A DNA stretch of 64,000 nucleotides from an uncultured bacterium (GTDB taxonomy: Bacteria; Methylomirabilota; Methylomirabilia; Rokubacteriales; DASRDR01), in the NCBI GenBank assembly GCA_964463175.1, contig CAYXBJ010000112.1, positions 1,331-65,330 on the forward strand. The letters run 5' to 3'. Shown piece by piece: positions 15,623 through 41,845 of the stretch. Within the stretch, counting starts at the first letter, position 1; every line of letters begins with the position of its first letter. A program made the translations under genes and the position numbers. A model generated the notes under the pieces. The model did not search any database, was not told the DNA's origin, and saw only the letters and a list, made by a program, of their open reading frames with translations.

Positions 15623-15665
15623 TGCTGCGCGGGGTCCGGTCCGGGTCAGTCGGCCCTGGCCCGCG

Positions 15666-20817: not shown

Positions 20818-21642
20818 ATGAGGACAAGCGCGGTGGTGGCGTTGGCGGGCTGGGCTCTGGTGTCGCCGATGACGAGCCGGGCCGAAGCCCCGCCCTCCGT
20901 CTTCCTCGAGGAGCTGACCTGGACCGAGGTGCGGGACCTGATCCGCGCCGGGGCCACGACCATCATCCTGCCAACCGGCGGCACGGAGCAGAACGGCCCG
21001 CACATGACGCTCGGCAAGCACAACGCCCGCGCGCGAGCCCTGTCGGCGGCGATCGCCCGCGCGCTCGGGAACGCGCTGGTCGCTCCGGTTCTCGCCTACG
21101 TCCCCGAGGGCGGGCTCGCGCCGCCGACCGGGCACATGCGCTACCCGGGCACGATCACGCTCGGCGAGGCGCCCTTCGAGGCCGTGCTCGAGTCCGCGGC
21201 CCGGAGCTTCGCCCTCCACGGATTCCGCGACATCGTCTTCCTCGGGGACAGCGGGGAGAACCAGCGGGGCCAGGAGGCGGTGGCGCGACGCCTGAACCAC
21301 GCCTGGGCCGGAACGGCGATCCGCGTCCACGCGATCGAGGCGTACTACCGGGCGAGCACCGCGGGCGCGAGCGCGCTCTTCCGGAGCCGCGGCTACCAGG
21401 ACAGCGAGCTCGGGCGCCACGCCGGCGCGCTCGACACGTCGCTCGCCCTGGCGGTCGACCCGAGCCTCGTGCGGCAGGACCGCCTGCACGCCGGCCCCTG
21501 GGAGGGTGCGGACGGCGATCCGAGCCGCGCGAGCGCCGAGGTGGGGCGCGCGGCCGTCGATCAGATCGTCGCCCAGACCGTCGAGGCCATCCGGCGTGCG
21601 GTCACGCGGCCCGCCGTCCCGCCGGTCGGCGCGCACCCATGA
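20818..21642 (+). CDS. Creatininase (creatinine amidohydrolase) family protein with N-terminal signal peptide
   Basis: ILPTGGTEQNGPHMTLGKHN and LAYVPEGG blocks are typical of the creatininase / MftE-like fold. Signal-like N-terminus MRTSAVVALAGWALVSPMTSRAEA. RBS AAGGAG upstream. Confidence 0.7.
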   Translation: MRTSAVVALAGWALVSPMTSRAEAPPSVFLEELTWTEVRDLIRAGATTIILPTGGTEQNGPHMTLGKHNARARALSAAIARALGNALVAPVLAYVPEGGLAPPTGHMRYPGTITLGEAPFEAVLESAARSFALHGFRDIVFLGDSGENQRGQEAVARRLNHAWAGTAIRVHAIEAYYRASTAGASALFRSRGYQDSELGRHAGALDTSLALAVDPSLVRQDRLHAGPWEGADGDPSRASAEVGRAAVDQIVAQTVEAIRRAVTRPAVPPVGAHP

Positions 21643-23606: not shown

Positions 23607-24287
23607 CTAGGAGACGCTGGGCAGCCGGCGCCCGCTGTGGCGCTCGAGCTGGGCGCGGTCGAGGATGACCGCGGACCGCGGCTCGAGCCGGATCGCGCCG
23701 CTGCTCTCGAGCTGGCGGAGCGAGCGCGTCGCGACCTCGCGGACGGTGCCGACCATGGCCGCCAGCTCGTTCCGGGTGGGCAGCGTCGCCACCCCGCCGG
23801 GCCCGGCCAGGCGCAGGAGCAGCCCGGCCATCCGCGGGACGACGCCTCGCAGCGACAGATCCCCCGCCAGCCGCGCCATGTCGCGGAGGCGCCCCGCCAG
23901 CATGCGGGACATCTCCAGTCCGATCTGGGGATACTCGTGGACCAGGCTCGTCAGCGCGGCCCGGCCGATGAGAAGCATCACGCTGGCCTCGGTGGCCTGC
24001 GCGTTCGCGATGGCGGGCTCGCCGTCGAGCGCGGACGCCTCGTTGATCGACTCGCCGACCGCCGCGTGGAAGAGCTCCTGCTCACGCCCGTCAGGCGACA
24101 TCTTGAACACGCGGATCTGCCCGGAGGCGACCACGTAGAGGCCCGGCGCCGGCTCGCCTTCCAGGTAGATCAGCGAGCCCTTTTCGTAGACGCGGATGAC
24201 GGTGCGGCGCGTGACCGCGCTCAGACTGTCCGGATCGAGACCCGCGAAGAACGGGTGCCGCCCGAGCACGTCCACGACGTCCACCAT
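23607..24287 (-). CDS. Crp/Fnr family transcriptional regulator
   Basis: cNMP-binding beta-roll (GEPAPGLYVVASGQIRV...) plus C-terminal HTH (RNELAAMVGTVREVATRSLRQLE). Confidence 0.8.
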   Translation of the reverse strand: MVDVVDVLGRHPFFAGLDPDSLSAVTRRTVIRVYEKGSLIYLEGEPAPGLYVVASGQIRVFKMSPDGREQELFHAAVGESINEASALDGEPAIANAQATEASVMLLIGRAALTSLVHEYPQIGLEMSRMLAGRLRDMARLAGDLSLRGVVPRMAGLLLRLAGPGGVATLPTRNELAAMVGTVREVATRSLRQLESSGAIRLEPRSAVILDRAQLERHSGRRLPSVS

Positions 24288-29668: not shown

Positions 29669-30595
29669 TTACGGCCGATTCCGAATGCCGAAGGGCACGT
29701 GGACGGACGGCGCGACGGTGGCCGCCGGGACCGCGTGCGTCTTCTGATCGTCGAAGAAGATGTGCGGGCGAAAGATCTCGAGAACCCGGTTCTTCCCGAG
29801 GCCGCCGAGCAGCAGGGTCTCGTCGACCGTGATGCCCCAGCTGCGGAGCGTCGTCACCATGCGCCGATGGGCCGGCGCATTCCGCGACGTCACGATCGCC
29901 GTCCGGATCTTGGGGAGATAGTGCGGGTCCCGCTGGACGCGCCGGCGCTCGAGCTGCTGCAGTCGGGCCATCTCCTCGAGAAGACGCTTCAGCGGACCGG
30001 CCTCGAGCGGCAGCGGCGCATGAGCATCCTCGTGATCGAGGAACTGCTGCAGGCCGTGCTCGTGGTTGACCCGCTCGGATTCGTCGCTCGCAAGCACCCC
30101 ATCGAAGTCGAAGGCGATCCGCAGCTCGGGATCCGTCGGGTCGTCCTCGACGCTCGATCCGAGCACCTGACCCGCCGGTCGCCCGTCCCCCAGAGCCGCG
30201 CGAACGTCCTCCTCGTTCGCCGAGAGGAAGAGACTCGCGTTGAACGCCGGCATGTACCGATAGGGGCGCCGTCCGGTCACGAAGGCGCCGCGCGAGATCG
30301 CCAGCTTGTGGTGCGCGATGGAGTTGAACACCCGCAGTCCGGTGTCCGGATCGTTCCGCGAGAGCAGGATGACCTCGACCGGCCGGTCGTCCGGATCGGG
30401 CTCGTTGAGGCTGAGGAGGCGGCGCACGAACGAGAACGCCACGCCCGGATTGAGCACGTCCTCCTCGTGCTCGCGCTGGTACCGGCGGTACTCGTCCTCG
30501 CCGCGCTCCCGGAACACGCGATCGGATTCGGTGAGGTCGAAGAGGGCGCTCGAGGCGAGCGCGACGACGAACTTCTCCTCGATCAGGAACGGCAA
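29669..30595 (-). CDS. Bacterial 5'-nucleotidase family (PF06189-like HAD-related) protein
   Basis: IAFDFDGVL DxD-type motif and overall similarity to the bacterial cytosolic 5'-nucleotidase family. Confidence 0.55.
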   Translation of the reverse strand: MPFLIEEKFVVALASSALFDLTESDRVFRERGEDEYRRYQREHEEDVLNPGVAFSFVRRLLSLNEPDPDDRPVEVILLSRNDPDTGLRVFNSIAHHKLAISRGAFVTGRRPYRYMPAFNASLFLSANEEDVRAALGDGRPAGQVLGSSVEDDPTDPELRIAFDFDGVLASDESERVNHEHGLQQFLDHEDAHAPLPLEAGPLKRLLEEMARLQQLERRRVQRDPHYLPKIRTAIVTSRNAPAHRRMVTTLRSWGITVDETLLLGGLGKNRVLEIFRPHIFFDDQKTHAVPAATVAPSVHVPFGIRNRP

Positions 30596-30633: not shown

Positions 30634-31587
30634 TCATCGAGCCTGTGCGAGCCGCGCGGCGACGCCGTCGGGGACCGGGTAGCGGCGCGTGGCGGGGCCG
30701 GCCTTGACGAGCTGACCCGGGAGCACGCGACCCACCACCTCCTGGACGCGGCGCGACACGCCCAGCAACCGGTCGAGATCGATGCCGGTCTGGACGCCCA
30801 TGGCGTGGAGGCCGTGGACGAGGTCCTCCGTGCAGACGTTGCCGGACGCCCCGGGCGCGAACGGGCAGCCGCCGAGCCCGCCGATCGAGCTGTCGAAGTG
30901 GGTCACGCCGCACGCCATCGCGGCGAGGATGTTCGGGATCGCCATCGCGCGCGTGTCGTGCGTGTGGAGCGTCCACTCAACGCCGGGGAAGCGCGGCATG
31001 AAGCGCTCCAGGATCGCCGTCACCTGCCGCGGGTTCGCCATGCCGGTCGTGTCAGCGAGGGCGATGCCGGGGGCGCCCATGTCGACGAGCGACCGCACCA
31101 CCCACTCCAGCCGCTCGACCGGCACGTCGCCCTCGAACGGGCACCCGAACGACGTCGAGATCGCGCAGTTCACCGCCACCCTCGCGCGCGCGGCGACCTC
31201 CAGCACGGCGCGGAGCTTCACCAGCGACTCGGCGACCGTCATGTTGACGTTGGCGAGGTTGTGGCTCTCGCTCGCGGAGACGACGGTGTGGATCGCGTCG
31301 ACGCCGGCGTCGACCGCGCGCACGGCGCCCTTGTCGTTCGGCACGAGCGCGACGTAGCGCGTGCCCGGCCGCCGGCGGATCCGCGCCATGACCTCCTCGG
31401 CGTCCCGCATCTGGGGCACCACCTTCGGGTGGACGAACGACGTGACCTCGATGCGCGGGAGGCCGGTCTCGGACAGGCGGTCGATGACCTCGACCTTCGT
31501 CTCGGTCGGAATCCACTCGGGCTCGATCTGGAAGCCGTCGCGGGGCCCGACCTCGCAGATGGTGACGCGCGCCGGCAGTGTCAGCAT
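30634..31587 (-). CDS. Hydroxymethylglutaryl-CoA lyase-like (HMGL-like TIM barrel)
   Basis: VTICEVGPRDGFQ...HTHDTRAMAIPNILAAMACG contains the DRE/HxH-type metal site of the HMG-CoA lyase family. Confidence 0.8.
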   Translation of the reverse strand: MLTLPARVTICEVGPRDGFQIEPEWIPTETKVEVIDRLSETGLPRIEVTSFVHPKVVPQMRDAEEVMARIRRRPGTRYVALVPNDKGAVRAVDAGVDAIHTVVSASESHNLANVNMTVAESLVKLRAVLEVAARARVAVNCAISTSFGCPFEGDVPVERLEWVVRSLVDMGAPGIALADTTGMANPRQVTAILERFMPRFPGVEWTLHTHDTRAMAIPNILAAMACGVTHFDSSIGGLGGCPFAPGASGNVCTEDLVHGLHAMGVQTGIDLDRLLGVSRRVQEVVGRVLPGQLVKAGPATRRYPVPDGVAARLAQAR

Positions 31588-31624: not shown

Positions 31625-32545
31625 TCATAGCTCGCGCGGGCAGCCCGGCGCCGTCGACCCGAGCGCGTGGGCCATCGCGCGGAGATGCGCGGGCGCGCTC
31701 CCGCAGCAGCCGCCGACGATCCGGACGCCCGCGGCGACGAGTCGCTTCGCGTAGTCGGCCATCTCCTCCGGGCTCCCGCGGTAGACGGCCTTCCCGTCCT
31801 CCAGCACCGGCAGGCCGGCGTTCGGCTTGGCGACGAGCACCGCGTCCGGGACGGCCGCGTGCATGGCGACCATCGCGGGCAGGAGCTCCGCCGGGCCGAG
31901 GCCGCAGTTGCCGCCGACCGCCGCGGCGCCGAGCGCGGTCAGCTCCTTCGCCGCCTGCTCGGGGCTGACGCCCATCATCGTGTGCCCGTGGGTGTCGAAG
32001 CTCATCGTGACGACCACCGGCACGCCGGGCGCCGCCTGGCGCACGCCCTCGAGCGCGGCCTCGACCTCCTCGAGCGCCGACATGGTCTCGATCCAGAACA
32101 CGTCGACGCCGCCGGCATGGAGGGCGGCCGCCTGCTCGGCGAATCCCTTGACGGCGTCGTCACGCTCGAGCTCCCCGAGGGGCGCCAGGATCCCGCCGCT
32201 CGGGCCGATGTCGCCGGCGACGACGGCCCGGCTGCCCGGCGCGTGCGCGATCGCCCCGGCGAGCCTCGCCGCGGCTTCGTTCAGCTCGGCGACCCGCGTG
32301 TCGAGGCCGTGAAGCGCGAGGCGGAACCGGTTCCCGCCGAACGTGTTGGTCAGGAGGATCCGCGCGCCGGCGTCCTGGTACGCGCGGTGGATCTCGCAGA
32401 TCACGTCGGGGCGCTCGACGTTCCAGCGCTCCGGGGAGTCGCCGGAGGTGAGCCCGGCCTCGAAGAGCATCGTGCCCATGGCGCCGTCTGCCAGGATCGG
32501 GCCCGGCGCCGCGAGAAGCGCCCGCCAGCGCGCGCCGTCAGGCAA
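31625..32545 (-). CDS. Homocysteine S-methyltransferase-domain protein (MetH N-terminal-like; candidate methylcorrinoid:homocysteine/THF methyltransferase)
   Basis: ILADGAMGTML...ILLTNTF...VGGNCGLGP...GGCCGSAPAHL (Zn-binding Cys triad pattern). Start is probably the TTG at 32543-32545 (8-nt overlap with the corrinoid-protein gene), so the start is low confidence. Confidence 0.7.
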   Translation of the reverse strand: MPDGARWRALLAAPGPILADGAMGTMLFEAGLTSGDSPERWNVERPDVICEIHRAYQDAGARILLTNTFGGNRFRLALHGLDTRVAELNEAAARLAGAIAHAPGSRAVVAGDIGPSGGILAPLGELERDDAVKGFAEQAAALHAGGVDVFWIETMSALEEVEAALEGVRQAAPGVPVVVTMSFDTHGHTMMGVSPEQAAKELTALGAAAVGGNCGLGPAELLPAMVAMHAAVPDAVLVAKPNAGLPVLEDGKAVYRGSPEEMADYAKRLVAAGVRIVGGCCGSAPAHLRAMAHALGSTAPGCPREL

Positions 32546-33224
32546 GGGAGCCGCCCATCTTCTCGGCCATGAGGCGCTTCGCCGTCGCGACGGCCTTCGC
32601 GGCGTCGCGGCAGTAGGCGTCGGCGCCGATCGTCTTCGCGAAGTCGGCGTTGAGCGGCGCGCCGCCGACCAGGACGATGAGCTTCTCGCGGAGCCCGGCC
32701 TCCTTGAGCGCCTGGATCACCACGCGCATGTACGGCATCGTCGTCGTGAGAAGCGCGCTCATCCCGAGGATGTCGGCGCCGTGCTCGCGCACGGCATGCA
32801 GGAACTTCTCGACGTCGGTGTTGATGCCGAGGTTGATGACCTGGAAGCCGGCCCCCTCCATCATCATCCCGACCAGGTTCTTCCCGATGTCGTGGATGTC
32901 GCCCTTGACGGTGCCGATGACGAGCGTGCCGATGCGCGGCGCGCCGGTCTCGGCGAGGAGGGGCCGCAGGACCTCCATCCCCCCCTTCATCGCCTTCGCG
33001 GCCATCAGCACCTGCGGGACGAAGAGCTTCCCGGTGCGGAAGTCCTCCCCCACGACGTCCATGCCGGCGATGAGGCCCTGGGTGAGGGCGTCGTAGGGCG
33101 TGAGCCCGCGGCGGAGGAGTTCGTGGACGCCGGCCACGACGGGCTCGACGTGGCCGCCGTAGAGGTTGTCCTGGATCTGCTCCAGGAGCTCCTCGAGCGG
33201 CAGCTGCGTGAGGTCGCTACTCAT
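32538..33224 (-). CDS. Cobalamin (B12)-binding corrinoid protein (MtgC/MtbC-like)
   Basis: DxHxxG B12-binding motif (GDIHDIGKNLV) and cap + Rossmann B12-binding domain organisation. 228 aa. Confidence 0.8.
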   Translation of the reverse strand: MSSDLTQLPLEELLEQIQDNLYGGHVEPVVAGVHELLRRGLTPYDALTQGLIAGMDVVGEDFRTGKLFVPQVLMAAKAMKGGMEVLRPLLAETGAPRIGTLVIGTVKGDIHDIGKNLVGMMMEGAGFQVINLGINTDVEKFLHAVREHGADILGMSALLTTTMPYMRVVIQALKEAGLREKLIVLVGGAPLNADFAKTIGADAYCRDAAKAVATAKRLMAEKMGGSLA

Positions 33225-33227
33225 TCG

Positions 33228-34754
33228 CTAGGCCTCGGCCTGCTGGGCGAGCCGGCGGCGCCGCCGCTCCGCCCGGTCGGAGAGCGCCTCGTCGGGCGCG
33301 CGCGTCCAGCCCTCGGGCGGCGCGAACGTCGCGGCCACCATGCCGGCGAACTCCGAGCGGAGCCGCGCGTCGACCTCGGGGGAGAAGAGGCTCGGCGCGT
33401 CGCGGGTGAGAATGTCGCGGACCCGCGCCATCGCGCGCCCCTGAGCGTCGAGCCCGCCCTTCTCGATCCACCCCTGACGGGGATCTCGGTCAGCGATCTC
33501 CGGAAGGAACCCCGTGGTGCGCATGCGCTCGAGCGTGTGCACGTGGTCGGCGAACATGCCGCCCGGCCCCACTTCCTTGATCACGTCGAGCGCGAAGTTC
33601 TCCTCGGTCAGCTCGAGGCCCTTCTGGATGCGACGGAGCATCGCCACGATCTCGTCGTCGATGACCGCCTTCGCGAAGTCGAACGACATGAGGGCGTCCA
33701 GGAGCCCCGCCATGTTGAAGAGATGATTGCCGGACAGGAGCGCCGCCACCCCGGACATGCCGGTCTCGAAGCCGGACTGGGCGTCGTTCACCTTCGCGTT
33801 CGAGAGTCCGATGTAGCCGCCGCACGGCACGCCGTAGAAGCGCGCCAGCTGCGCGACCCCCATGAACAGCATGCCGGTCTCGATGGCGCCCGGCGCGTAG
33901 GCGCCGGTCCGCATGTCGGCCACCGTCGGGAGGCTCGAGTAGATCGTCGCCTTCCCCGGCCGCACCATCTGCTCGAGGACGATCGCCGCCAGGAACTCGG
34001 CGTTCCCTTGCACCAGCGTGCCGGCGAGCGTCAGCGGCGACGTCAGCCCGGCGTTCGGCACGAGGGTCGGATGGCCGGGCAGGCCGCGCTCGGCGTAGTA
34101 GATGAGGGTCTCGGTGGAGTCGTAGTCCATGGTGAGGGGCGACACGCACGGGCAGTAGTGGTGCGTGATGAAGGGCCGCGCCATGTAGGCGGCCTCGCCC
34201 CCGGCAATGATGTGGGCGAGCTTCAGGATCGAGTCGAGCTCCTCCGGCGGGCCGCTGATGCGGATCGGCTTCCGGCAGTACTTGAGCGCGGCGTAGAGCC
34301 GCGTGGTCGAGAAGAAGGCGGGCGGCGCGTCGTCGGCGAGCGTCGAGACCGAGAAGATGTCGTAGTTCGGGAGCTGATCGACGAGCCGCGCGATGCGCGC
34401 GATGTCCGCGGCCAGCGCGCGGCGGGCGATCCCCGTCGCCGGGTCGACCATGTCGGGGGCCGAGCTGCCCGTGATCACCACCGGCGCGTCGTCGGGCACG
34501 GTGCGATCGAACTGCGGGTCGCGCGCCCGGAACGTGAACTTCGGCGGCATGCCGGCGCGGTGCTGCTCGACCACCGCGCGCGGGAACCGGACCCTTTCCC
34601 CGCCCGCCTCGACCTTGCAGCCGTGCTTGGCGAAGATCTCGCGAGCGCGGGCGTTCCGGACGAGCATCCCCACGTCTTCCAGGATCTCGAGGGAGGCCTC
34701 GTGGACCCGGCGGACCTCGTCCTCGGACAGGAACGCCGCGGGTGTCCGGATCAT
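33228..34754 (-). CDS. MttB-superfamily (non-pyrrolysine) quaternary-amine:corrinoid methyltransferase (MtgB-like)
   Basis: 508 aa with typical MttB-family blocks. Uninterrupted ORF with no in-frame amber codon, i.e. the non-Pyl clade. GGGGGAG RBS upstream of ATG 34752-34754. Confidence 0.8.
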   Translation of the reverse strand: MIRTPAAFLSEDEVRRVHEASLEILEDVGMLVRNARAREIFAKHGCKVEAGGERVRFPRAVVEQHRAGMPPKFTFRARDPQFDRTVPDDAPVVITGSSAPDMVDPATGIARRALAADIARIARLVDQLPNYDIFSVSTLADDAPPAFFSTTRLYAALKYCRKPIRISGPPEELDSILKLAHIIAGGEAAYMARPFITHHYCPCVSPLTMDYDSTETLIYYAERGLPGHPTLVPNAGLTSPLTLAGTLVQGNAEFLAAIVLEQMVRPGKATIYSSLPTVADMRTGAYAPGAIETGMLFMGVAQLARFYGVPCGGYIGLSNAKVNDAQSGFETGMSGVAALLSGNHLFNMAGLLDALMSFDFAKAVIDDEIVAMLRRIQKGLELTEENFALDVIKEVGPGGMFADHVHTLERMRTTGFLPEIADRDPRQGWIEKGGLDAQGRAMARVRDILTRDAPSLFSPEVDARLRSEFAGMVAATFAPPEGWTRAPDEALSDRAERRRRRLAQQAEA

Positions 34755-34973
34755 GACTGGCTCCCCCTGACGCGGGTAGACGCGCCCCCCGCGCTGGCCA
34801 TCCAGGGTACCAGAGATGGGGCCAGATCTTGCCTTCCGGACGAGTCGCGAACCCCGGTCCGCCGCCCGGAGTAGGTCCGCAGCCGGAGGAAATGTCCGTG
34901 CAGCCAGGTCCGATCCTCCCCTGCTAGACTGGGGCCACTTCTACACTGGGGTGACTTCCAGGAGGAGCCGACC

Positions 34974-35834
34974 ATGCCCGCAGCGACCACCCGGACGGCG
35001 CACGCGATGTCGCCGGAAGAGCAGCAGGCGTTCTACGCGGACCAGGGTTACCTGGTCTTCCCCGAGATGCTGGGTCGCGACGAGGTCGCCGCGTTGCGCG
35101 CGGCGCTGGACGAGGTGCTCGAGGAGGCCCGGGGACTGACCGAGAACACCCCGAAGTTCTCCGTCACCCGGGGCCACGACGGCGCTCACCACGTGCGCCG
35201 GATCTTCAACCCGATCCAGCACCACAAGGCGTTCCACGACGCCGCGTTCCATCCGCGGATCCTCGACGCCGTCGAGAATCTCATCGGCCCGAACATCCAG
35301 CTCCACCACAGCAAGCTCAATCTGAAGCCGCCGTCGAGCCCCGAGTCGAGGTTCGAGTGGCACCAGGACTATCCGTTCTTCCCGCACACCAACTACGACC
35401 TGCTCGCGGTGCTGGTGCACATCGACGAGTCGACCGAGGAGAACGGGTGCCTCCGGATCATGCCGGGCATCCACCGGCTCGGTCCGCGCCTCCACCGGTT
35501 CGCCAAGGACGGCGCCTTCTCGTCGCAGCTCGAGGACCGGAGCGTGCTCGCCGACGAGTCGCAATTCCTCAACGTCCCCTGCCCGGCCGGCGGCGTGGAG
35601 CTGCACCACTGCAACATGCTCCACAGCTCGACCGCGAACCGCGGCACCGCGCCGCGCAGCGTGCTGATCTTCCAGTACCGCGCCGCGGACAACGTCGCGC
35701 TGGGCGGCGGCATGGCGCACTTCGGGTTCGGGATGATGGTGCGGGGGGCGATGCCCTATCGGGCGCGCATGCTCGACGGCACCCTCGTCGCGCTGCCCGG
35801 CGAGATCAAGGACCCGCTCCAGCGGGACGGCTAG
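34974..35834 (+). CDS. Phytanoyl-CoA dioxygenase (PhyH) family Fe(II)/2-oxoglutarate-dependent oxygenase
   Basis: WHQDYPFF...HxD...H facial-triad pattern of the PhyH family. GGAGGAG RBS 6 nt upstream of ATG 34974. Confidence 0.8.
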   Translation: MPAATTRTAHAMSPEEQQAFYADQGYLVFPEMLGRDEVAALRAALDEVLEEARGLTENTPKFSVTRGHDGAHHVRRIFNPIQHHKAFHDAAFHPRILDAVENLIGPNIQLHHSKLNLKPPSSPESRFEWHQDYPFFPHTNYDLLAVLVHIDESTEENGCLRIMPGIHRLGPRLHRFAKDGAFSSQLEDRSVLADESQFLNVPCPAGGVELHHCNMLHSSTANRGTAPRSVLIFQYRAADNVALGGGMAHFGFGMMVRGAMPYRARMLDGTLVALPGEIKDPLQRDG

Positions 35835-35867: not shown

Positions 35868-36188
35868 TCAGCGCGCGGCCGGAGCGGGCCCCAGCTCGGC
35901 CTCGAGGAACTCGCGGGTGCCGGGCGGGCCGGTGAGCTCGAGCCATGCGGGACCGCCGCCGGGCTCGACCGTCAGCCGGAACCGGAGGAACGCGCAGCAT
36001 CGCCGCTCGAGGTCGATGAACGTCGCGAGGAGTGCCAGGCGCTCCGGCTCGGCGGCAAAACGGAGCGCGACGCCATCCGGCAGCCAGCGGGCATCCTCCC
36101 GGGCCCGCCGGACCTCGCCCAGCACGCCGGCCCGGCGCTCGGCGAGCTCGGGCTCGGTCAGGCTGCAGGCGACGGGCAGGTCGGTCAC
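35868..36188 (-). CDS. Hypothetical small protein (~106 aa) upstream of the MBL gene
   Basis: Coding-like composition in the C-terminal 106 codons of track ORF 35868..36470. GTG start 36186-36188. No recognised domain. Confidence 0.3.
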   Translation of the reverse strand: MTDLPVACSLTEPELAERRAGVLGEVRRAREDARWLPDGVALRFAAEPERLALLATFIDLERRCCAFLRFRLTVEPGGGPAWLELTGPPGTREFLEAELGPAPAAR

Positions 36189-36199
36189 GCCCGGTCGAC

Positions 36200-37138
36200 C
36201 TACCCGCCGAAGGTGAACGTCGAGCCGGTCGAGCTCACGACCAGCTCCTTCCCCATCTGCTGGGCGAGCCGGACGAACGCCTCCGCGCCCGTGCAGTGCT
36301 GGGGCACGAGGTAGTCGACCTCGAAGCCGCGGAGCGCCTCGACGACGCGATCGATCCGCTCCGCGTCGAGCCCGGACAGATGGAAGCCGCCGATCACGGC
36401 GTGGATCTTCGCGACTCCGCTGACGCGCGCCGCGTGGCGGCAGATGCCGACGATCCCGCGATGCGAGCACGACGTGACGACGACCAGCCCGCGGTCCTTC
36501 ACGTGGGCGACGAGGGTCTGCTCGCCGATGAACGTGTCCTGGACGAAGGCGCCGTCCTGCTCCATGCGGAGCGACGGCGGGATCGCCTCGTACGGCTCCG
36601 GCGCCCGCATCTCGCCCGAGAGGAGCACGCCCTCGGGAAGGACCATCGGCTCCGGCACGTCGACCACGTCGAGATCCCAGCGCGCGACGTCACCCCGGTC
36701 GAGGCGGCCGAGGGACACACGGTCCCCGTCCCGCTCCATGAAGCGCGCGACGTAGTGATTCGGATGGCCGTAGAAGCGAAGCCCCGGCCGCATGACGCGC
36801 CGGTACGCCGTCAGGAAGCCGAGCAGCCCGCCGAAGTGATCGGAGTGGCCGTGAGAGAGCGCGAGCGCGTCGATCTTCGTCGCGTCGAGGCCCAGCTCCC
36901 GGAAGTTGTGAGTCATCGACGCGGCGCTGAGGCCGAAGTCAAACGCCAGGCGGGCGCTCTCGCGTCCCCGCGTCACCTCCACGTGGTGGGCGAGACCGTG
37001 CTCGGCGCGGAGGTCGGCGATCTTCCGGGCCCGCGGGACGCTCCAGCGGCGCGCGACCTTCTCGTCGGCGCGCAGGATGTCGACCGAGTTGTCGACGACG
37101 GTGGTGACGGCGACGCGATCGACCACCGGCAGCGGCAT
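36200..37138 (-). CDS. MBL-fold metallo-hydrolase
   Basis: HxHxDH motif (LSHGHSDHFGG). 312 aa from ATG 37136-37138. The track ORF has a 132-aa junk N-terminal extension. Confidence 0.7.
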   Translation of the reverse strand: MPLPVVDRVAVTTVVDNSVDILRADEKVARRWSVPRARKIADLRAEHGLAHHVEVTRGRESARLAFDFGLSAASMTHNFRELGLDATKIDALALSHGHSDHFGGLLGFLTAYRRVMRPGLRFYGHPNHYVARFMERDGDRVSLGRLDRGDVARWDLDVVDVPEPMVLPEGVLLSGEMRAPEPYEAIPPSLRMEQDGAFVQDTFIGEQTLVAHVKDRGLVVVTSCSHRGIVGICRHAARVSGVAKIHAVIGGFHLSGLDAERIDRVVEALRGFEVDYLVPQHCTGAEAFVRLAQQMGKELVVSSTGSTFTFGG

Positions 37139-37143
37139 GGCTC

Positions 37144-38310
37144 TCAGTACGACCGCGGGAGGCCGAGGACGTGCTCGGCGATGTACGCGGTGACCAGGTT
37201 CTGGTTGATGGGCGCCGTCTTGTAGAGCCGCGCCTCGCGGAACTTCCGCTCGATGTCGTACTCCTCGGCGAACCCGTAGCCGCCGTGGCAGTCGACGCAG
37301 GCGTTGGCCGCCTCCCACGCCGCCTCGGCCGAGAGGTACTTGGCCATGTTGGCCTCGGCACCGCAGGGCTGGCCGGCGTCGAAGAGCGCGGCCGCCTTGT
37401 TCCGCATGAGCTCCGACGCCTCGACCGCCATGTGGGCCTTGGCGATCGGAAACTGGACGCCCTGGTTCGCCCCGATCGGCCGCCCGAAGATCACGCGCTG
37501 GTTCGAGTAGGCCACCGCCTTCTCCACGAACCACCGCCCGTCCCCGACGGAATCCGAGGCGACCAGGATGCGCTCGGCGTTCATGCCGTCGATGATGTAG
37601 GAGAAGCCGCGGCCCTCCTCGCCGATCAGGCTCTCGGCGGGGATCTCCATGTTGTCGAAGAAGAGCGCGTTGGTGGAGTGGTTCATCATCATGCGGAGCG
37701 GCCGGACCTCAAGCCCCTGCGCCTGGCGCAGGTCGAAGAGGAACACGGACAGCCCGTCCGTCTTCCGCGTCACGTGGTCGACCGGCGTCGTGCGCGCGAG
37801 GAGCAGCATCAGATCGGATTGCAACACCCGCGAGATGAAGATCTTCTGGCCGTTGACGACGTAGCGGTCGCCCCGGCGCACCGCGGTCGTCTGGAGCTTG
37901 GTGGTGTCCGACCCCGAGTTCGGCTCGGTCACGCCGAACGCCTGGAGCCGGAGCTCGCCGGTCGCGATCTTCGGGAGATAGCGCCGCTTCTGGTCCTCGG
38001 AGCCGTGCCGGAGGACCGTGCCCATGATGTACATCTGGGCGTGGCACGCCGCCGCGTTACCGCCGCACGCGTTGATCGTCTCGAGGATGAGGCCGCCCTC
38101 GAGGATGCCGAGTCCGGCGCCGCCGTACTCCGTCGGGACCAGGGCGCCGAGGTAGCCGGCGCGCGTGAGCTCGGTTACGAACGCCTCCGGGTAGGCGCGC
38201 TCCTGATCGAGCTGCCGCCAGTACTCGCCCGGATAGCGCTTGCAGATCTCGGCCACGCCCGCCTTCAGCGCGCGCTGCTCGTCGGTCAGCGTCAGGCTCA
38301 TGGACACCAT
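37144..38310 (-). CDS. Acyl-CoA dehydrogenase
   Basis: Full ACAD architecture (N-terminal helical, beta-barrel and C-terminal helical domains, e.g. ...GGYGFAEEYDIERKFREARLY). 388 aa. Confidence 0.85.
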   Translation of the reverse strand: MVSMSLTLTDEQRALKAGVAEICKRYPGEYWRQLDQERAYPEAFVTELTRAGYLGALVPTEYGGAGLGILEGGLILETINACGGNAAACHAQMYIMGTVLRHGSEDQKRRYLPKIATGELRLQAFGVTEPNSGSDTTKLQTTAVRRGDRYVVNGQKIFISRVLQSDLMLLLARTTPVDHVTRKTDGLSVFLFDLRQAQGLEVRPLRMMMNHSTNALFFDNMEIPAESLIGEEGRGFSYIIDGMNAERILVASDSVGDGRWFVEKAVAYSNQRVIFGRPIGANQGVQFPIAKAHMAVEASELMRNKAAALFDAGQPCGAEANMAKYLSAEAAWEAANACVDCHGGYGFAEEYDIERKFREARLYKTAPINQNLVTAYIAEHVLGLPRSY

Positions 38311-38320
38311 GGCTCGGCCC

Positions 38321-39118
38321 TCAGCGCCCCTCGAACCGAGGCTTCCGGCGCTCGTTGAACGCGCGGACGCCCTCGACGCGGTCCTGGGTCACGACCGTCG
38401 CGTTGTAGGCCTCGATCGACAGCACCATCCCGGTCTCGAGGTCGGTCTCGCCGCCCCAGGCGATCGCCTTCTTCGCCTGGCGCACTGCCACCGGGCCGTT
38501 CTCCGCGATGGTGGCGGCGAGCTCGGTCGCCCGGAGTCGCGCCTGGCCGCGCGGCACGACATGGTTCACGAGGCCGATCGCCCGCGCCTCCGGAGCCTCC
38601 ACGCGCCGTCCCGTGAAGATGAGCTCCTTCGCCAGCGGCGCGCCGACGATGCGCGGCAGGAGCTGCGTCCCGCCCACGCCGGGGAAGATCCCGCGGGTGA
38701 CCTCCGGCAGGGCGAACACCGCGCTCTCGCTCGCGACGACGAAGTCGGCGAGGAGGGCGAGCTCGCAGCCGCCGCCGAACGCGAAGCCCTCCACGGCGGC
38801 GATCACTGGCGCCGGGCAGCGGAGGATGGCCATCGCCGCCTGCTCGAAGATGAGGTGCTGGGCGCGCCAGACGTCGTCCGACATGCCCTCGCGCTCCTTG
38901 AGGTCGCCGCCGACGCAGAACGCGCGATCACCCGCGCCGGTGAACACGACCGCGCGCACGCCCGGCGCGACGGCCGGCCCGCGGAAGCACCCGAGAAGGT
39001 CCTCGCCCATCGCCGTGTTCATCGCGTTCAGGACCTCCGGGCGGTGCAGCACCACGGTGAGGACGTGGCCGTCCCCCGAGCCCTCGAGCCGGAGCGTGCG
39101 GAAGCTCGCCTCGCTCAC
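38321..39118 (-). CDS. Enoyl-CoA hydratase/isomerase (crotonase), CaiD-like
   Basis: LTVVLHRPEVLNAMN...AFCVGGDLKE...GFAFGGGCELALL crotonase signatures. 265 aa. Confidence 0.85.
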   Translation of the reverse strand: MSEASFRTLRLEGSGDGHVLTVVLHRPEVLNAMNTAMGEDLLGCFRGPAVAPGVRAVVFTGAGDRAFCVGGDLKEREGMSDDVWRAQHLIFEQAAMAILRCPAPVIAAVEGFAFGGGCELALLADFVVASESAVFALPEVTRGIFPGVGGTQLLPRIVGAPLAKELIFTGRRVEAPEARAIGLVNHVVPRGQARLRATELAATIAENGPVAVRQAKKAIAWGGETDLETGMVLSIEAYNATVVTQDRVEGVRAFNERRKPRFEGR

Positions 39119-39211
39119 GCGAGCCTATCCACGCGAGACCGAGCGACGCCGCGCGCCAGCTCGACCATTCGGTTCATCCGCTCGGCGACACGGTCCGGCG
39201 CGCACGACCCG

Positions 39212-40414
39212 TCACTCCGGCAAGGGCCAGTCGACGACGCCCTGCGCGCGAAGCTCGCCCATCTCGACCGCGCCGAAGCCGAGCTCGCCGAGGAGGTCGA
39301 TGGTGTGCTCGCCCACGCGCGGCGGCGGGCGGCGGGGCACCGGGCGCTCGTCGCCGAACCGCACGGGAAGCGCCACCGTCGTGAGATCGGGAAGGTCCGG
39401 ACGCGGCGTGGGCATGAGCATCTCGCTCGCCTTCGTCTGGGGATCCGTCGCGACCTGATCGACGGTCTGCACCGGCGCGCCGGTGACGCCGGCCTGGCGG
39501 AGGCGCTCGAGGAGCTCCGCGGTCGCCCACGGACGCGTCAGCCCTTCCAGCACGGGGACGAGCGTCGCGCGGTTCTGCACGCGATCGGGGTTGGTGCGGT
39601 ACCGCGGGTCGGCGGCGAGCTCGGGGCGCCCGAGGGCCTCGCAGAGCCGGCCGAAGAGCGCGTCGGTCGGGGTCGTGATCATGAGGTAGCCGTCGACCGT
39701 CGGGAAGGCCTGGTAGGGCACGATCATCGCCGCGGCCGAGCCCTGGGGCTGCAGCACCTCGCCGGTTCCGAGGTACGCCATGATCTGGTAGGGAATCCAC
39801 GCGAGCGCGGTGTCGAAGAGCGCGGTGCTCACCTCCGAGCCGACCCCGGTCTCGTCCCGCTCCCGGAGTGCCGCCAGGACGCCGAGCGCCGCCCACATCC
39901 CCGTTCCCATGTCGACCATCGACGTGCCCGCGCGCACCGGCGCCTGGCCGGGGTGGCCGGTCAGCCGCATGAACCCGCTGTAGCCCTGCATCATCGGGTC
40001 GTACCCCGGATGCTCGCGCAGCGGCCCGCGGCTCCCGAACGCGGTCACCGAGCAGTAGACGAGTCGGGGGTTGAGGGCGCGGGCCTGCGCCGTGCCGAAG
40101 CCGAGCTCGTCGGCGTTGCCGGGGCGGAAGCTCTGCACGAGCACGTCCGATCGCCGGACGAGCCGCTCGATCACCGCGCGGGCCCCGGGCGCTTTCACGT
40201 CGAGGGCGAGGCTCCGCTTGTTCCGGTTGAACGACAGGAAGATCGTGCCCTCCGGCCCCCAGCGCGGCGGCGCCCACGCGCGCGTCTCGTCCCCGCGGCC
40301 CGGCCGCTCGACCTTGACCACGTCCGCGCCCAGGTCCCCGAGGATCTGGGTGCAGTACGGCCCGGCCACGTTCTGCGTGAGATCGAGGACGGTCAGCCCG
40401 GCCAGCGCGGTCAC
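39212..40414 (-). CDS. Family III CoA-transferase (CaiB/BaiF-like)
   Basis: LAGLTVLDLTQNVAGPYCTQILGDLGADVVKVE is the family-III N-terminus. Start assigned to GTG 40412-40414. Codons upstream to ATG 40546 are AT-rich and non-coding-like. Confidence 0.7.
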   Translation of the reverse strand: MTALAGLTVLDLTQNVAGPYCTQILGDLGADVVKVERPGRGDETRAWAPPRWGPEGTIFLSFNRNKRSLALDVKAPGARAVIERLVRRSDVLVQSFRPGNADELGFGTAQARALNPRLVYCSVTAFGSRGPLREHPGYDPMMQGYSGFMRLTGHPGQAPVRAGTSMVDMGTGMWAALGVLAALRERDETGVGSEVSTALFDTALAWIPYQIMAYLGTGEVLQPQGSAAAMIVPYQAFPTVDGYLMITTPTDALFGRLCEALGRPELAADPRYRTNPDRVQNRATLVPVLEGLTRPWATAELLERLRQAGVTGAPVQTVDQVATDPQTKASEMLMPTPRPDLPDLTTVALPVRFGDERPVPRRPPPRVGEHTIDLLGELGFGAVEMGELRAQGVVDWPLPE

Positions 40415-40518
40415 GGCGATCAGTATAGCCTCGCCGGCCGGGTCCGCGGACCATCCCGGCCCGGACGGCGCGGGTCGGGTTGACGGCCGGGCGGCGCCGC
40501 CGCAGAATGCGACGTAAG

Positions 40519-40534
40519 TTGGTCGGCCAACCAA
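40519..40534. promoter_or_regulatory. Near-palindrome TTGGTCGGCCAACCAA in the divergent TetR / CoA-transferase intergenic region (candidate TetR operator)
   Basis: 16-bp inverted repeat with one mismatch. Lies in the only AT-richer stretch between the divergent genes. Confidence 0.4.
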
Positions 40535-40641
40535 TTTATGTTCCACTTCATGTCATCGAGCGGTGAGTGCAAAGCGTGTCGAGAATCGGATGCGCCCCCT
40601 GACGGGGACCTCCCGCGATTCGCGCCGCGAGGGCGTCGTCC

Positions 40642-41274
40642 GTGAGCCCGCGACCCAGGGTCGCCGACGAGCGTCGAGCGGCGATCGTCCGCGCCACCAT
40701 CCGCTGCCTGGCGCGTGACGGGTATGCCCGTCTCACGATGAAGCGGGTCGCCGCGGAGGCGGGCGTGAGCCCCGGCATCCTCCACTACTACTTCCGCGAC
40801 AAGCGCGCGATCCTGGGCCGCGCCGCCGCCACCGTCATGGCCGATCTCGATCGGCGCGTGGCGACCGAGGCACGCGGCGCGCGCGACGCGAGGGGGCGCC
40901 TGCGGGCTCTCCTCCGCGCCTGCCTCGAGGTCGCGACCGAGAGCCGCGAGTTCTGGACGGTGCTCATCGAGCTGTGGGGCGAGGCGCTCCACGACCGGGA
41001 GCTCGCGCGGCTGAACCGGCTCGCCTACGCGCGAGCCCGGCGGTTCCTCGCGGCGGGCGTCGCGCGGGGCGCCGCGGCCGGCACCTTCCGCAAGGTCGCG
41101 CCCGACGAGGCCGCGGCGGTCATCCTCGCCCTCGTGGACGGGCTCTCGCTCCAGATCACCTTCGACCCCGAGCTGATGCCGCTCGGCCGCGCCGTTCGTG
41201 TCGCGGAGGAGGCGCTGGGCGCCTATCTGGCGGGGGCCGGCCGATCCGATGCGTGGGAGGACCGCCATGGCTGA
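40642..41274 (+). CDS. TetR/AcrR family transcriptional regulator
   Basis: N-terminal HTH (RLTMKRVAAEAGVSPGILHYYFRDKRAIL). 210 aa. Confidence 0.85.
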   Translation: MSPRPRVADERRAAIVRATIRCLARDGYARLTMKRVAAEAGVSPGILHYYFRDKRAILGRAAATVMADLDRRVATEARGARDARGRLRALLRACLEVATESREFWTVLIELWGEALHDRELARLNRLAYARARRFLAAGVARGAAAGTFRKVAPDEAAAVILALVDGLSLQITFDPELMPLGRAVRVAEEALGAYLAGAGRSDAWEDRHG

Positions 41275-41845
41275 CCCGGCCCGGCCCGCGCGTGCCCGCC
41301 TGCTCGACTACCTCCGGGCGCGGGCCGCCGGGCTCGACGCGCCGCGGCTCCGGGCGCGCGTGCGCTCGGCGGCGGCGGAGTTCGAGGCGGCACTCGCGGG
41401 GCTCGATGAGCCCGCGGCGCGCCGGCGGGTCACCGCGGACGAGTGGACGGTGGCGCAGGTGGTGGATCACGTCGCCCAGTCCACCGTGCGATCCGCCGAG
41501 GAGCTCCGCCATCTCCGCGCGGGCCGGCGGCCGCCGGGTCCGCCGATCTACGAGGCGCTCCTCTCCGGGGCCGCCCACCGCGTGCCGTGGACCGAGCTGG
41601 TCGACGGTCTACGGGAGGCGATGGCTGCGCTCGACGAGGCGCTGAGCGGCCCCGCCGCGCTCGACGGCAGCCCGGCGCGCACGGTCACCGCGCCGGCCGT
41701 CCTGGTGATCAACGCGGAAGAGGCGGGCGGCACGCCCGAGATCTTCGCGGCCGAGCTCACGTGGCCGGAGTACGCGCTCGTGGTGCGGCTGCACCTCCTG
41801 GAGCACCGTGCGCAGGTCCGTCAGCTCCGCAGCGCGGGAGTCTGA
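41267..41845 (+). CDS. DinB-like / maleylpyruvate-isomerase N-terminal-domain family protein
   Basis: WTVAQVVDHVAQS...(DinB_2-like helical bundle His motif). ATG 41267 overlaps the TetR stop (ATGGCTGA). Confidence 0.5.
   Translation: MADPARPARARLLDYLRARAAGLDAPRLRARVRSAAAEFEAALAGLDEPAARRRVTADEWTVAQVVDHVAQSTVRSAEELRHLRAGRRPPGPPIYEALLSGAAHRVPWTELVDGLREAMAALDEALSGPAALDGSPARTVTAPAVLVINAEEAGGTPEIFAAELTWPEYALVVRLHLLEHRAQVRQLRSAGV

Follow-up and report, generated by a model that had tools for sequence, protein, structure and literature searches.

What pathway is served by the run of CoA-enzyme genes on the minus strand of this 64-kb stretch of DNA from a rokubacterium (the window), and do the MttB methyltransferase and TetR genes beside it belong to the same system? 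The original prediction read the run as a Cai-like module under TetR control that, together with MttB, catabolizes a carnitine-like quaternary amine. The reading favored here, with middling confidence, is that the five minus-strand genes make up the promoter-proximal portion of a Rokubacteria operon that ends in HMG-CoA lyase.

Gene layout and the conserved operon

GC3 frame analysis and Pfam bear out all five minus-strand genes as predicted (family-III CoA-transferase, crotonase, acyl-CoA dehydrogenase, MBL-fold protein, and small protein), and the divergent TetR gene and its palindrome are likewise present (Table 1). The proposed span, 36200-41274, holds for its genes, but its start leaves out the small protein. 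MttB begins 1.1 kb past this 106-aa gene, with PhyH convergent between both. The window also carries creatininase, hydantoinase, TMADH-like flavoprotein, and second S-methyl_trans genes.

Table 1. Features of the locus, in window coordinates
Feature	Position	Strand	Remarks
Family-III CoA-transferase (CoA_transf_3), 400 aa	39212-40414	-	GTG start; first gene of operon
Crotonase-type enoyl-CoA hydratase (ECH_1), 265 aa	38321-39118	-	PF00378
Acyl-CoA dehydrogenase, 388 aa	37144-38310	-	Three ACAD Pfam domains
MBL-fold metallo-protein (Lactamase_B), COG1237 type, 312 aa	36200-37138	-	PF00753
Orphan protein, 106 aa	35868-36188	-	Last gene of CoA transcription unit
HMG-CoA lyase, 317 aa	30634-31587	-	NCBIfam PRK05692
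Inserted MttB cassette, whole	31625-34754	-	Pfam
Non-Pyl MttB	33228-34754	-	Pfam
Corrinoid protein	32538-33224	-	DIHDIG motif
Homocysteine S-methyltransferase	31625-32545	-	GGCC motif
PhyH-family Fe/2OG dioxygenase	34974-35834	+	PF05721; convergent with CoA unit
BetI-like TetR-family repressor, 210 aa	40642-41274	+	TetR_N + TetR_C_6; divergent
DinB/MDMPI-like gene	41267-41845	+	Pfam DinB_2, MDMPI_N
Palindromic operator TTGGTCGGCCAACCAA, 16 bp	40519-40534		Unique in window
Sigma-70-like promoter TTGACG-17-CAGAAT	40480-40508	+	Reads into tetR-dinB
TATACT box GGCTATACTG	40422-40427	-	Likely -10, presumed to serve the CoA operon

Relatives were compared in 80 species-level loci, nearly all from Rokubacteria, and lyase co-occurrence was scored in the 47 whose sequence spans 9 kb or more. 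The lyase is present in 43 of these 47 (identity 69-82%), and hydratase, dehydrogenase, and lyase occur jointly in 41. Gene order varies, yet all four core genes remain clustered. In two loci (L002 and L003), the transferase, hydratase, dehydrogenase, MBL, and lyase genes overlap or are closely spaced in that order, with the lyase immediately after dehydrogenase/MBL. The core operon across Rokubacteria comprises (i) CoA-transferase, (ii) enoyl-CoA hydratase, (iii) acyl-CoA dehydrogenase, and (iv) HMG-CoA lyase, and the gene that consistently accompanies the three CoA genes is the lyase, not MttB. A literature search for a characterized operon of these four enzymes found none, and we know of no such case. 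L002 and L088 carry an extra family-I CoA-transferase downstream, which fits acetoacetate activation.

The lyase scores 362.5 bits with PRK05692, the subfamily model for HMG-CoA lyase (cutoff 246), and matches the structures 6nds (300 bits), B. subtilis 1ydo (YngG, 290), and human 2cw6 (230). These scores identify a canonical HMG-CoA lyase whose nearest type is Bacillus YngG.

Family assignment of the CoA enzymes

The CoA-transferase scores 427 bits with PF02515, shares its length of 400 aa with most homologues, and has Asp168 within an invariant VDMGTGMW motif. Among solved structures, its matches descend from SUGCT (9br7, 280 bits) through YfdE (244) and Frc (185) to CaiB (75), the most distant family-III match. 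NCBIfam models give 305 bits for succinate-glutarate CoA-transferase (cutoff 750) and 94 for CaiB (cutoff 413), and identity is 38% to YfdE, 29% to Frc, and 25% to E. coli CaiB. The sequence thus marks the enzyme as SUGCT/YfdE/Frc-like; of the two groupings that the original prediction had named as telling against it, the one with formyl-CoA transferases is found. In a distant clade, CoA-transferase identity is 57-63% versus about 81% for the dehydrogenase, a divergence suggesting that the substrate of the transferase may have shifted there. SUGCT, a dicarboxyl-CoA:dicarboxylate transferase, forms HMG-CoA and glutaryl-CoA and takes glutarate, HMG, succinate, and adipate as substrates (PMC10871334). 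Resemblance to a system in which SUGCT feeds HMG-CoA lyase or glutaryl-CoA dehydrogenase lies in the best solved structure and in the lyase of this operon family; unlike that system, the locus has a transferase far below the equivalog cutoff and a dehydrogenase that is not orthologous to the decarboxylating glutaryl-CoA dehydrogenase.

The hydratase (PF00378, 209 bits) best matches 3kqf (219 bits), followed by AUH (162) and a "carnitinyl-CoA dehydratase" (139); it reaches 150 bits with the CaiD equivalog (cutoff 500) and is 36% identical to E. coli CaiD. All NCBIfam matches of the dehydrogenase fall below cutoff: AcrC (252, cutoff 640), non-decarboxylating glutaryl-CoA dehydrogenase (219), YdiO type (208), and CaiA (176, cutoff 540). 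The enzyme is 30% identical to E. coli CaiA and 78-88% identical phylum-wide. Its Glu246 lies on helix G, the YEGT glutamate of MCAD-type enzymes is absent, and alignment places this putative catalytic base as in CaiA and YdiO. Isovaleryl-CoA and long-chain dehydrogenases typically have a helix-G Glu and no YEGT Glu. A carboxylate-binding residue was sought in the dehydrogenase and none was identified.

The predicted caiB/caiD/caiA composition therefore stands at the level of three Pfam families, but the Cai identity does not, given the missed equivalogs and the low E. coli identities. E. coli caiTABCDE likewise has one family-III CoA-transferase, one crotonase, and one acyl-CoA dehydrogenase, and CaiA shares the helix-G Glu and the missing YEGT Glu. 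Unlike caiTABCDE, the locus lacks the antiporter, ligase, CaiE, and Fix electron-transfer genes, ends in an HMG-CoA lyase that is absent from Cai, and has a TetR repressor in place of the CaiF activator. As predicted, annotation of the 25-46 kb interval shows no caiT- or caiC-like gene. A carnitine module was rejected as an assignment because the Cai equivalogs are missed widely, SUGCT, YfdE, and Frc outscore CaiB, and the partner is HMG-CoA lyase.

The two remaining proteins are accessory and possibly act together as a thioester or other hydrolase with its partner. The MBL-fold protein (PF00753, 30.2 bits, cutoff 22.7) has an intact HGHSDH motif and matches only uncharacterized structures (2p4z at 90 bits, 3h3e, 7dck); its gene lies between dehydrogenase and lyase in 12 of the 80 relatives, loci without MttB included. 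The 106-aa orphan has no Pfam or NCBIfam match and 461 homologues, all unnamed, of which both taxon-labelled ones are from Methylomirabilota/Rokuibacteriota. Cys8, Cys64, and Cys65 are invariant, and the AF2 model (pLDDT 83) shows a repeated alpha-beta-beta arrangement that retrieves nothing from the PDB at E <0.01.

The methyltransferase cassette and the TetR operator

The trio of MttB, corrinoid protein, and homocysteine methyltransferase is an autonomous B12-dependent methyl-transfer cassette inserted into the operon in this lineage. It occurs in only 6 of the 80 relatives, always between dehydrogenase/MBL and lyase, and within the species set is confined to the clade with at least 82% CoA-transferase identity, plus L088 at 79%. 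The trio is co-oriented inside the operon in L006, L009-L011, L088, and the P0026 contig, and it keeps this position among relatives whose MttB identity ranges over 73-96%. MttB is missing from about 90% of related operons, whose dehydrogenase and lyase are still ~80% identical. Chloroflexota orthologues of MttB (66-68% identity) lie in GntR-flanked MttB-RACo-corrinoid-S-methyl_trans cassettes; the two such cassettes both lack CoA genes, and one adjoins a dimethylglycine-dehydrogenase-like gene. The predicted MttB link is thus physical, and operonic in close relatives, but the conserved partner is the lyase and the trio stands alone elsewhere.

MtgB structures are the top matches of MttB (246 bits), MtgC models fit the corrinoid protein best (209, cutoff 370), and the homocysteine methyltransferase matches BHMT PRK07534 (345.7, cutoff 338). 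MtgBCDE of Ruegeria pomeroyi is a glycine-betaine demethylase/split methionine synthase, with which the trio shares a pfam06253 methyltransferase, a pfam02310 corrinoid protein, and a pfam02574 homocysteine-binding module (PMC12478193). Unlike MtgBCDE and Desulfitobacterium MtgBCA, the locus has neither a pterin-binding (pfam00809) module nor a RamA/RACo activase, its MtgC score is below cutoff, and its cassette sits inside an acyl-CoA operon. PhyH (PF05721, 112 bits; weak match to ectoine hydroxylase, 63/336), found among relatives in L007 and L008 only, splits the ancestral operon in two and, with other inserted genes, separates the lyase from the CoA genes. PhyH, a PF06189 gene, an ABC transporter, and a DoeA-like M24 enzyme are variably present at one site in close relatives.

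The link between the palindrome and TetR is genuine. TTGGTCGGCCAACCAA is self-complementary at 14 of 16 positions and occurs once in the window, versus 0.10 chance matches expected; across 1.40 Mb of related loci, the consensus TTGGTTGGnCGACCAA turns up seven times, with a single copy in each locus that has TetR, 2-57 nt ahead of the tetR start codon, and none elsewhere. Twelve of the 16 operator positions are identical to TTGATTGGACGTTCAA of the E. coli betI-betT intergenic region, a level of identity reached by 55 of 20000 shuffles; we take TTGATTGGACGTTCAA to be the BetI-protected site. BetI models are the best NCBIfam matches of the regulator, both below cutoff (109/201, 93/118), and it is 28% identical to E. 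coli BetI. In both systems the genes are divergent and the site lies at the promoter of the regulator gene itself; unlike E. coli, the locus lacks betA, betB, and betT.

The operator starts 11 nt past the -10 box of the tetR-dinB promoter, over the tetR transcription start. This promoter is the sole promoter-like site in 34.6-41.4 kb, and both hexamers are kept in relatives, TetR-less ones too. The DinB-type gene, whose ATG at 41267 follows GGGAGG, overlaps the tetR stop by 8 nt and is co-transcribed with tetR; in TetR-less relatives, DinB is directly divergent to the CoA-transferase. TetR autoregulation is well supported, since the operator occurs once and only in TetR-bearing relatives, covers the tetR transcription start, and is similar to the bet site. 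A TATACT box lies 7 nt before the CoA-transferase GTG and recurs in 11 of 11 aligned upstream regions, 7-12 nt from the start codon; it is likely the -10 of a leaderless or short-leader CoA operon mRNA and would serve as its promoter element. The operon had been described as under TetR control; this we only infer, since the operator covers the tetR-dinB promoter and lies ~90 bp from the CoA -10 box.

Candidate pathways

Distal leucine/isovalerate catabolism with non-orthologous parts is a rather doubtful account. Here, the enzymes would act as isovaleryl-CoA dehydrogenase, 3-methylglutaconyl-CoA hydratase, and HMG-CoA lyase, with methylcrotonyl-CoA carboxylase elsewhere in the genome, and the transferase would activate free isovalerate or the acetoacetate product. 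The liu (Pseudomonas) and yng (Bacillus) clusters share acyl-CoA dehydrogenase, crotonase-type hydratase, and HMG-CoA lyase with this locus, and the YngG-type lyase, the helix-G Glu, and the branched-chain amino-acid-type ABC genes upstream in L004 agree with such a role; the very high phylum-wide conservation of dehydrogenase and lyase suggests housekeeping. However, the dehydrogenase scores only 157-160 bits with isovaleryl-CoA dehydrogenases of solved structure, of which it is not an orthologue, and matches generic short-chain enzymes better (190-217). Of 86 related loci, just 1 has a biotin-carboxylase-like gene within 10 kb, and the 64-kb window has none; MaoC, ferritin, LLM, and citrate synthase, rather than carboxylase subunits, occupy the gaps. 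The classical pathway needs no succinyl-CoA-dependent transferase, and liu/yng activation proceeds by ligase.

A single supercluster for a carnitine/gamma-butyrobetaine-like betaine would combine Cai-like chain processing, N-demethylation by MttB, and de-repression of a betaine-sensing TetR; in an extended form, the lyase would cleave carnitinyl-CoA to acetyl-CoA and betaine aldehyde. The embedded trio, the BetI-like regulator and operator, the CaiA-like Glu, and the creatininase, hydantoinase, flavoprotein, and second S-methyl_trans genes agree with it, as does the fact that TetR and MttB mostly co-occur in one subclade. It is improbable, given the Cai scores, the MttB-less operons and CoA-less Chloroflexota cassettes, and the absence of caiT, caiC, BCCT, and OpuA-type genes from the annotated 25-46 kb. 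The TetR-MttB pairing is broken by L006, L009, and L088 (MttB only) and L023 (TetR only). The lyase is canonical, and in human HMG-CoA lyase structures the C5 carboxylate of the substrate contributes to Mg binding, a role that a trimethylammonium group could not fill. Improbable, too, is a set of unrelated neighbors (CoA genes, trio, PhyH, TetR-DinB) inserted at a permissive, well-expressed locus, with TetR regulating tetR-dinB only. The operator position, the ancestral divergence of DinB where TetR is absent, and the variable genes at the PhyH site suit it; the constant intra-operon position of the trio despite substantial divergence and its frequent pairing with a BetI-like regulator argue against it.

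The best explanation, rated at about an even chance, is a succinyl-CoA-dependent activate-desaturate-hydrate-cleave route that degrades a short acid, probably one that is C5-dicarboxylic or 3-methyl-branched, with an inserted methyl-harvesting cassette. The SUGCT-like transferase would move CoA from succinyl-CoA onto a short carboxylic acid. The likeliest acid is a C5 dicarboxylate (glutarate, 3-methylglutarate, or HMG type), a preference that follows from the dicarboxylate substrates of the closest characterized relatives of the transferase (SUGCT, succinate-glutarate CoA-transferase, YfdE). The dehydrogenase would yield a 2-enoyl-CoA, the crotonase would hydrate it to a 3-hydroxyacyl-CoA of HMG-CoA type, and the lyase would cleave this to acetyl-CoA and either acetoacetate or malonate semialdehyde as the carbonyl acid. 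Against this route, none of the enzymes meets an equivalog cutoff for a defined substrate, the dehydrogenase yielded no carboxylate-binding residue and has its putative catalytic base where CaiA and YdiO have theirs, and the transferase has diverged much more than the dehydrogenase. The cassette, inserted between dehydrogenase/MBL and lyase before PhyH split the operon, would convert a quaternary amine and homocysteine to the demethylated amine and methionine, with glycine betaine as the most likely methyl donor, while the BetI-like TetR would bind the palindrome just past its own promoter and autoregulate tetR-dinB. Retention of the trio within the operon, together with the BetI-like regulator and operator, would be easier to explain if quaternary-amine and CoA chemistry were linked.

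Gene content and comparison with the Cai carnitine system

The window has a G+C content of about 71%, and its genes were called by third-position G+C. The names of homologues and the 80 related loci assign it to Rokubacteria/Methylomirabilota. Five minus-strand genes running from 40414 down to 35868 encode a CoA-transferase, a hydratase, a dehydrogenase, an MBL-fold protein, and a 106-aa protein, with tetR divergent to them (Table). The genes and the palindrome of the original prediction prove real, as judged by gene calls, Pfam assignments, and the uniqueness of the palindromic site. All 461 homologues of the 106-aa protein are "hypothetical", and its AF2 model has no Foldseek match in the PDB at E < 0.01; the solved relatives of the MBL-fold protein found in a PDB search are all uncharacterised. 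LptD and O-antigen genes lie beyond the TetR side of the locus, and an Rfam scan of the whole window returned zero riboswitches or other RNA families. None of the 86 related loci has an equivalent of the PF06189 gene, which also lacks an NCBIfam match; PhyH occurs solely in the window and two related loci (L007 and L008). The window also holds a second group of N-methyl-compound genes, comprising an Oxidored_FMN + Pyr_redox_2 fusion (domain layout as in trimethylamine dehydrogenase or 2,4-dienoyl-CoA reductase), a second S-methyl_trans, hydantoinase B and A, and creatininase, as well as a Crp-family regulator.

Table. Features of the locus and its surroundings (window positions)
Feature	Position	Strand	Remarks
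Family-III CoA-transferase	39212-40414	minus	GTG start; 400 aa, also in most homologues
Crotonase (hydratase)	38321-39118	minus	
Acyl-CoA dehydrogenase	37144-38310	minus	three-domain
MBL-fold protein	36200-37138	minus	HGHSDH motif intact
106-aa protein	35868-36188	minus	no family match (Pfam, NCBIfam)
TetR regulator	40642-41274	divergent to CoA genes	"BetI-type" C-terminal domain (TetR_C_6, Pfam)
Predicted operator TTGGTCGGCCAACCAA	40519-40534		14/16 self-complementary; single copy in window, 0.10 matches expected by chance
Sigma-70-like promoter	40480-40508	plus	TTGACG-17-CAGAAT; reads into tetR
CoA-operon box (GGCTATACTG) with stretch up to start codon	40415-40427	minus	TATACT at 40422-40427
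Tandem repeat CTAGACTGGGGCCACTT / CTACACTGGGGTGACTT	34924-34957		17-nt direct repeat
MttB trio	31625-34754	minus	MttB, corrinoid protein, S-methyl_trans
HMG-CoA lyase	30634-31587		PRK05692 member
PF06189 "5'-nucleotidase" family gene	29669-30595		417 bits; after lyase
Crp-family regulator	23607-24287		
Second N-methyl-compound group	13640-21642		

The original prediction had likened the CoA genes to the carnitine caiB-caiD-caiA set, an identity that is not borne out, as the likeness stays at the level of Pfam families. Each enzyme falls far below the cut-off of its Cai equivalog: 94.3 bits against 413 for the CoA-transferase (CaiB, NF002914), 175.8 against 540 for the dehydrogenase (CaiA, NF002885), and 150.2 against 500 for the hydratase (CaiD, NF002936), with identities to the E. 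coli K-12 proteins of 25, 30, and 36%, respectively. The annotated genes at 25-46 kb, and those of related contexts, contain neither the BCCT domain of a CaiT antiporter nor the AMP-ligase domain of a CaiC ligase.

The transferase is a full-length family-III CoA-transferase (PF02515, 427 bits, model positions 1-366 of 366), and its Asp168, invariant in 12 homologues, is probably the equivalent of SUGCT Asp212. Among solved structures it matches SUGCT best (280 bits), followed by a Brucella CaiB/BaiF-family protein (275), formyl-CoA transferase (250), YfdE (244), Frc (185), benzylsuccinate CoA-transferase subunits (157 and 123), methylacyl-CoA racemase (~95), and CaiB (75), the weakest family-III match in the PDB. 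The original prediction had named a transferase grouping with formyl-CoA or succinyl-CoA:benzylsuccinate transferases as half of what would speak against it, and the ranking, with SUGCT first and CaiB last, comes out that way. The top NCBIfam match is succinate-glutarate CoA-transferase (NF052585), of which the protein is not a member (305.5 bits, cut-off 750).

Many short-chain enzymes lie at an equal distance from the dehydrogenase; its best NCBIfam matches are, in order, AcrC, non-decarboxylating glutaryl-CoA dehydrogenase, YdiO type, a desulfinase, and CaiA. It carries Glu246 on helix G and lacks the MCAD-type YEGT glutamate, traits common with CaiA and YdiO. Isovaleryl-CoA dehydrogenase likewise has the helix G glutamate and no YEGT glutamate, and this placement does not discriminate between models. 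Taken together, a carnitine interpretation of the module is not supported.

A four-enzyme operon with HMG-CoA lyase

Neighbourhoods anchored on the transferase were collected from metagenome contigs and 80 species-representative genomes, and all window proteins were mapped onto them by tblastn. Of the 80 loci, 73 encode the hydratase and 74 the dehydrogenase. An orthologue of the window HMG-CoA lyase occurs in 43 of the 47 loci that extend at least 9 kb from the transferase start, and hydratase, dehydrogenase, and lyase are all present in 41 of the same 47. In two relatives (L002 and L003), the transferase, hydratase, dehydrogenase, MBL, and lyase genes overlap or almost abut, and one other contig keeps the four enzyme genes together in shuffled order. 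The lyase belongs to the HMG-CoA lyase subfamily PRK05692 (362.5 bits, cut-off 246), matches five solved HMG-CoA lyases at 230-300 bits, and has GPRDG, HTHD, and GGCP motifs. A search for cultured relatives in a plasmid collection yielded no orthologous cluster, the top match being 47% identical and in different contexts, and no report of an operon of transferase and HMG-CoA lyase was found in the literature.

Where the transferase is less than 70% identical to that of the window (57-68%; 57-63% in the main distant clade), median identity is still 81% for the dehydrogenase and 79% for the lyase. Over the 80 loci, the transferase is at least 82% identical in the near clade versus 57-63% in the distant one, with dehydrogenase and lyase at ~80% throughout; judging by these identities, the transferase of the MttB-bearing clade may have changed specificity or been replaced.

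Accessory genes that recur behind the lyase encode a luciferase-like oxidoreductase and an O-methyltransferase; others that recur encode ferritin, MaoC, and the MBL protein. In close relatives, an SBP_bac_1 ABC transporter lies inside or just after the module in L001 (13764-18277), L002 (15244-18342), and L088 (14613-17621); its binding protein matches only generic sugar and UgpB-type binders, which gives no clue to the substrate. L001 also encodes an M24 enzyme whose top match is the ectoine hydrolase DoeA (225 bits, below the cut-off). Both the transporter and the M24 enzyme are absent from the window. A short (345-aa) MetE-like Meth_synt_2 gene lies ~3.8 kb upstream of the transferase in 28 related loci (e.g., L029 5169-6206 and L004 3124-4170), recurring in the distant clade without the B12-dependent trio; it may tie the module to methionine synthesis in another way, or its recurrence may be coincidental.

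In the proposed pathway, a short acid would be activated by the succinyl-CoA-dependent transferase, desaturated by the dehydrogenase, hydrated by the hydratase, and finally split by retro-Claisen cleavage through HMG-CoA lyase. That a lyase takes the place of 3-hydroxyacyl-CoA dehydrogenase and thiolase hints at an intermediate substituted at position 3. SUGCT, the nearest characterised relative of the transferase, acts on dicarboxylates, glutarate and HMG among them, and passes CoA from one to another (PMC10871334). Because of this dicarboxylate use, the canonical lyase, and the family-I CoA-transferases (candidates for acetoacetate activation) that follow the lyase in L002 and L088, the substrates are most likely C5 dicarboxylates of the glutarate, 3-methylglutarate, or HMG type.

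The MttB trio inside the operon

The MttB of the trio (PF06253; MTTB, 313.9 bits) is an uninterrupted 508-aa ORF with no in-frame UAG. The corrinoid protein carries its DxHxxG motif as DIHDIG at residue 109, and the S-methyl_trans protein has a GGCC motif and scores 345.7 against a cut-off of 338 with the BHMT model. The trio thus contains the methyltransferase, corrinoid protein, and methyl-acceptor module of a non-pyrrolysine MttB/MtgB-type system. MtgB and MtgC are the closest characterised matches, although MtgB structures, the top matches of the window MttB, reach only 246 bits. In module composition, the trio is the same as the recently described Ruegeria system, in which glycine-betaine demethylation is coupled to methionine synthesis (PMC12478193).

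The trio occurs in six of the 80 loci, all with a transferase at least 82% identical, and additionally in L088 and on a further contig (P0026). Its position is constant, between the dehydrogenase/MBL/small genes and the lyase; this constancy within the operon and its rarity among relatives indicate that the trio was inserted into an operon that already existed. Chloroflexota commonly carry MttB orthologues, at 64-70% identity. In two such contexts (MttB 66-68% identical), MttB sits in a cassette of its own, GntR | MttB, RACo activase, corrinoid protein, S-methyl_trans, DUF1638; close to one of the two lie MTHFR, a pterin-binding protein, and a dimethylglycine-dehydrogenase-like gene. This last neighbour, in L090, is suggestive of glycine betaine as a putative MttB substrate. 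The RACo activase, DUF1638, and pterin-binding genes seen beside these orthologues (L089 10001-17147; L090 10001-18502) are missing from the window trio.

The original prediction treated 29-41 kb as one catabolic supercluster. The later insertion of the trio and the absence of CoA genes from both Chloroflexota contexts count against this, and no report of MttB together with CoA genes was found in the literature. On the simplest reading, the CoA operon and the MttB trio are two modules and not a single pathway.

Predicted TetR control and competing readings

The palindrome is a good operator call, being unique in the window, the MttB-PhyH intergenic region included, and co-occurring with tetR across related loci. 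The consensus TTGGTTGGnCGACCAA has seven copies in 1.40 Mb of related sequence, one for each of the seven loci with TetR, where it precedes the tetR start by 2-57 nt, and none in TetR-less loci. Because of this exact co-occurrence, strong comparative evidence predicts the palindrome to be the cognate operator of TetR. It starts 11 nt past the -10 box of the tetR promoter, the sole promoter-like site in the region. A dinB-like gene overlaps the tetR stop, and where relatives lack TetR, dinB comes directly after this promoter.

The module had been placed under this regulator. The divergent TetR and its operator stand, but the operator sits at the tetR promoter, and a separate conserved box belonging to the CoA operon lies ~90 bp away from it, 7-12 nt ahead of the transferase start codon. 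For these reasons, autoregulation of tetR-dinB is well supported as a prediction, whereas the divergent layout makes repression of the CoA operon no more than plausible. The box holds the same position in L001-L012 and L023, where, as in the window, no Shine-Dalgarno sequence lies at a normal distance before the start codon; the arrangement suggests that the transferase mRNA may be leaderless or have a very short leader. The tandem repeat directly precedes the PhyH ribosome-binding site, and both of its copies hold a TAnACT hexamer resembling the TATACT box.

TetR scores below both BetI equivalogs (109.1 vs 201.3 for TIGR03384 and 93.2 vs 118 for PRK00767), although these models are its top family matches and the TetR_C_6 domain is clear (83 vs 27). 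A site in the E. coli betI-betT intergenic region (TTGATTGGACGTTCAA) is identical to the window operator at 12 of 16 positions, with 55 of 20000 shuffles as good. The homologues in the PDB, all unnamed structural-genomics TetRs, give no clue to the ligand. The strongest case left for a quaternary-amine signal is this BetI-like regulator with its operator, but with all three Cai equivalogs missed and CaiB last among the structure matches, a carnitine-type supercluster is quite unlikely. A leucine/isovalerate route with its carboxylase encoded elsewhere fares somewhat better, though still unlikely. The module is not a classical leucine (liu/yng) cluster, because methylcrotonyl-CoA carboxylase subunits are unlinked to it: tblastn with E. 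coli AccC matches one of 86 loci and nothing in the window, and the gap genes are annotated as other families.

Purely coincidental adjacency is improbable to much the same degree as the supercluster. Very improbable is a real metabolic coupling, in which a trio inside an operon under a BetI-like repressor would mark an undescribed aerobic carboxy-betaine route. Gamma-butyrobetaine, carnitine, or a C5 homologue would be CoA-activated by transfer, desaturated, and hydrated; the HMG-CoA-lyase homologue would yield acetyl-CoA and betaine aldehyde or glycine betaine; and the methyl groups of the cleavage product would pass to cobalamin and then homocysteine, giving methionine. In human HMG-CoA lyase, the C5 carboxylate of the substrate helps bind Mg, which argues against a betaine as lyase substrate. 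The module is read as another case of a familiar type of acyl-CoA catabolic operon, with the inserted methyl-transfer cassette as its one unusual feature.

As given, the carnitine reading would have suggested a carnitine pathway in a soil bacterium; the evidence favours something more ordinary, an operon for short-chain acyl-CoA catabolism next to a TetR gene. The analysis defines a phylum-wide, uncharacterised operon of transferase, hydratase, dehydrogenase, and HMG-CoA lyase in uncultured Rokubacteria, in which a compact cassette of MttB, corrinoid protein, and homocysteine methyltransferase acts as a movable unit. It carries over to soil phyla the connection of betaine demethylation with methionine synthesis that was described recently, and offers for testing a predicted BetI-like operator and regulator pair that is comparatively well footprinted.
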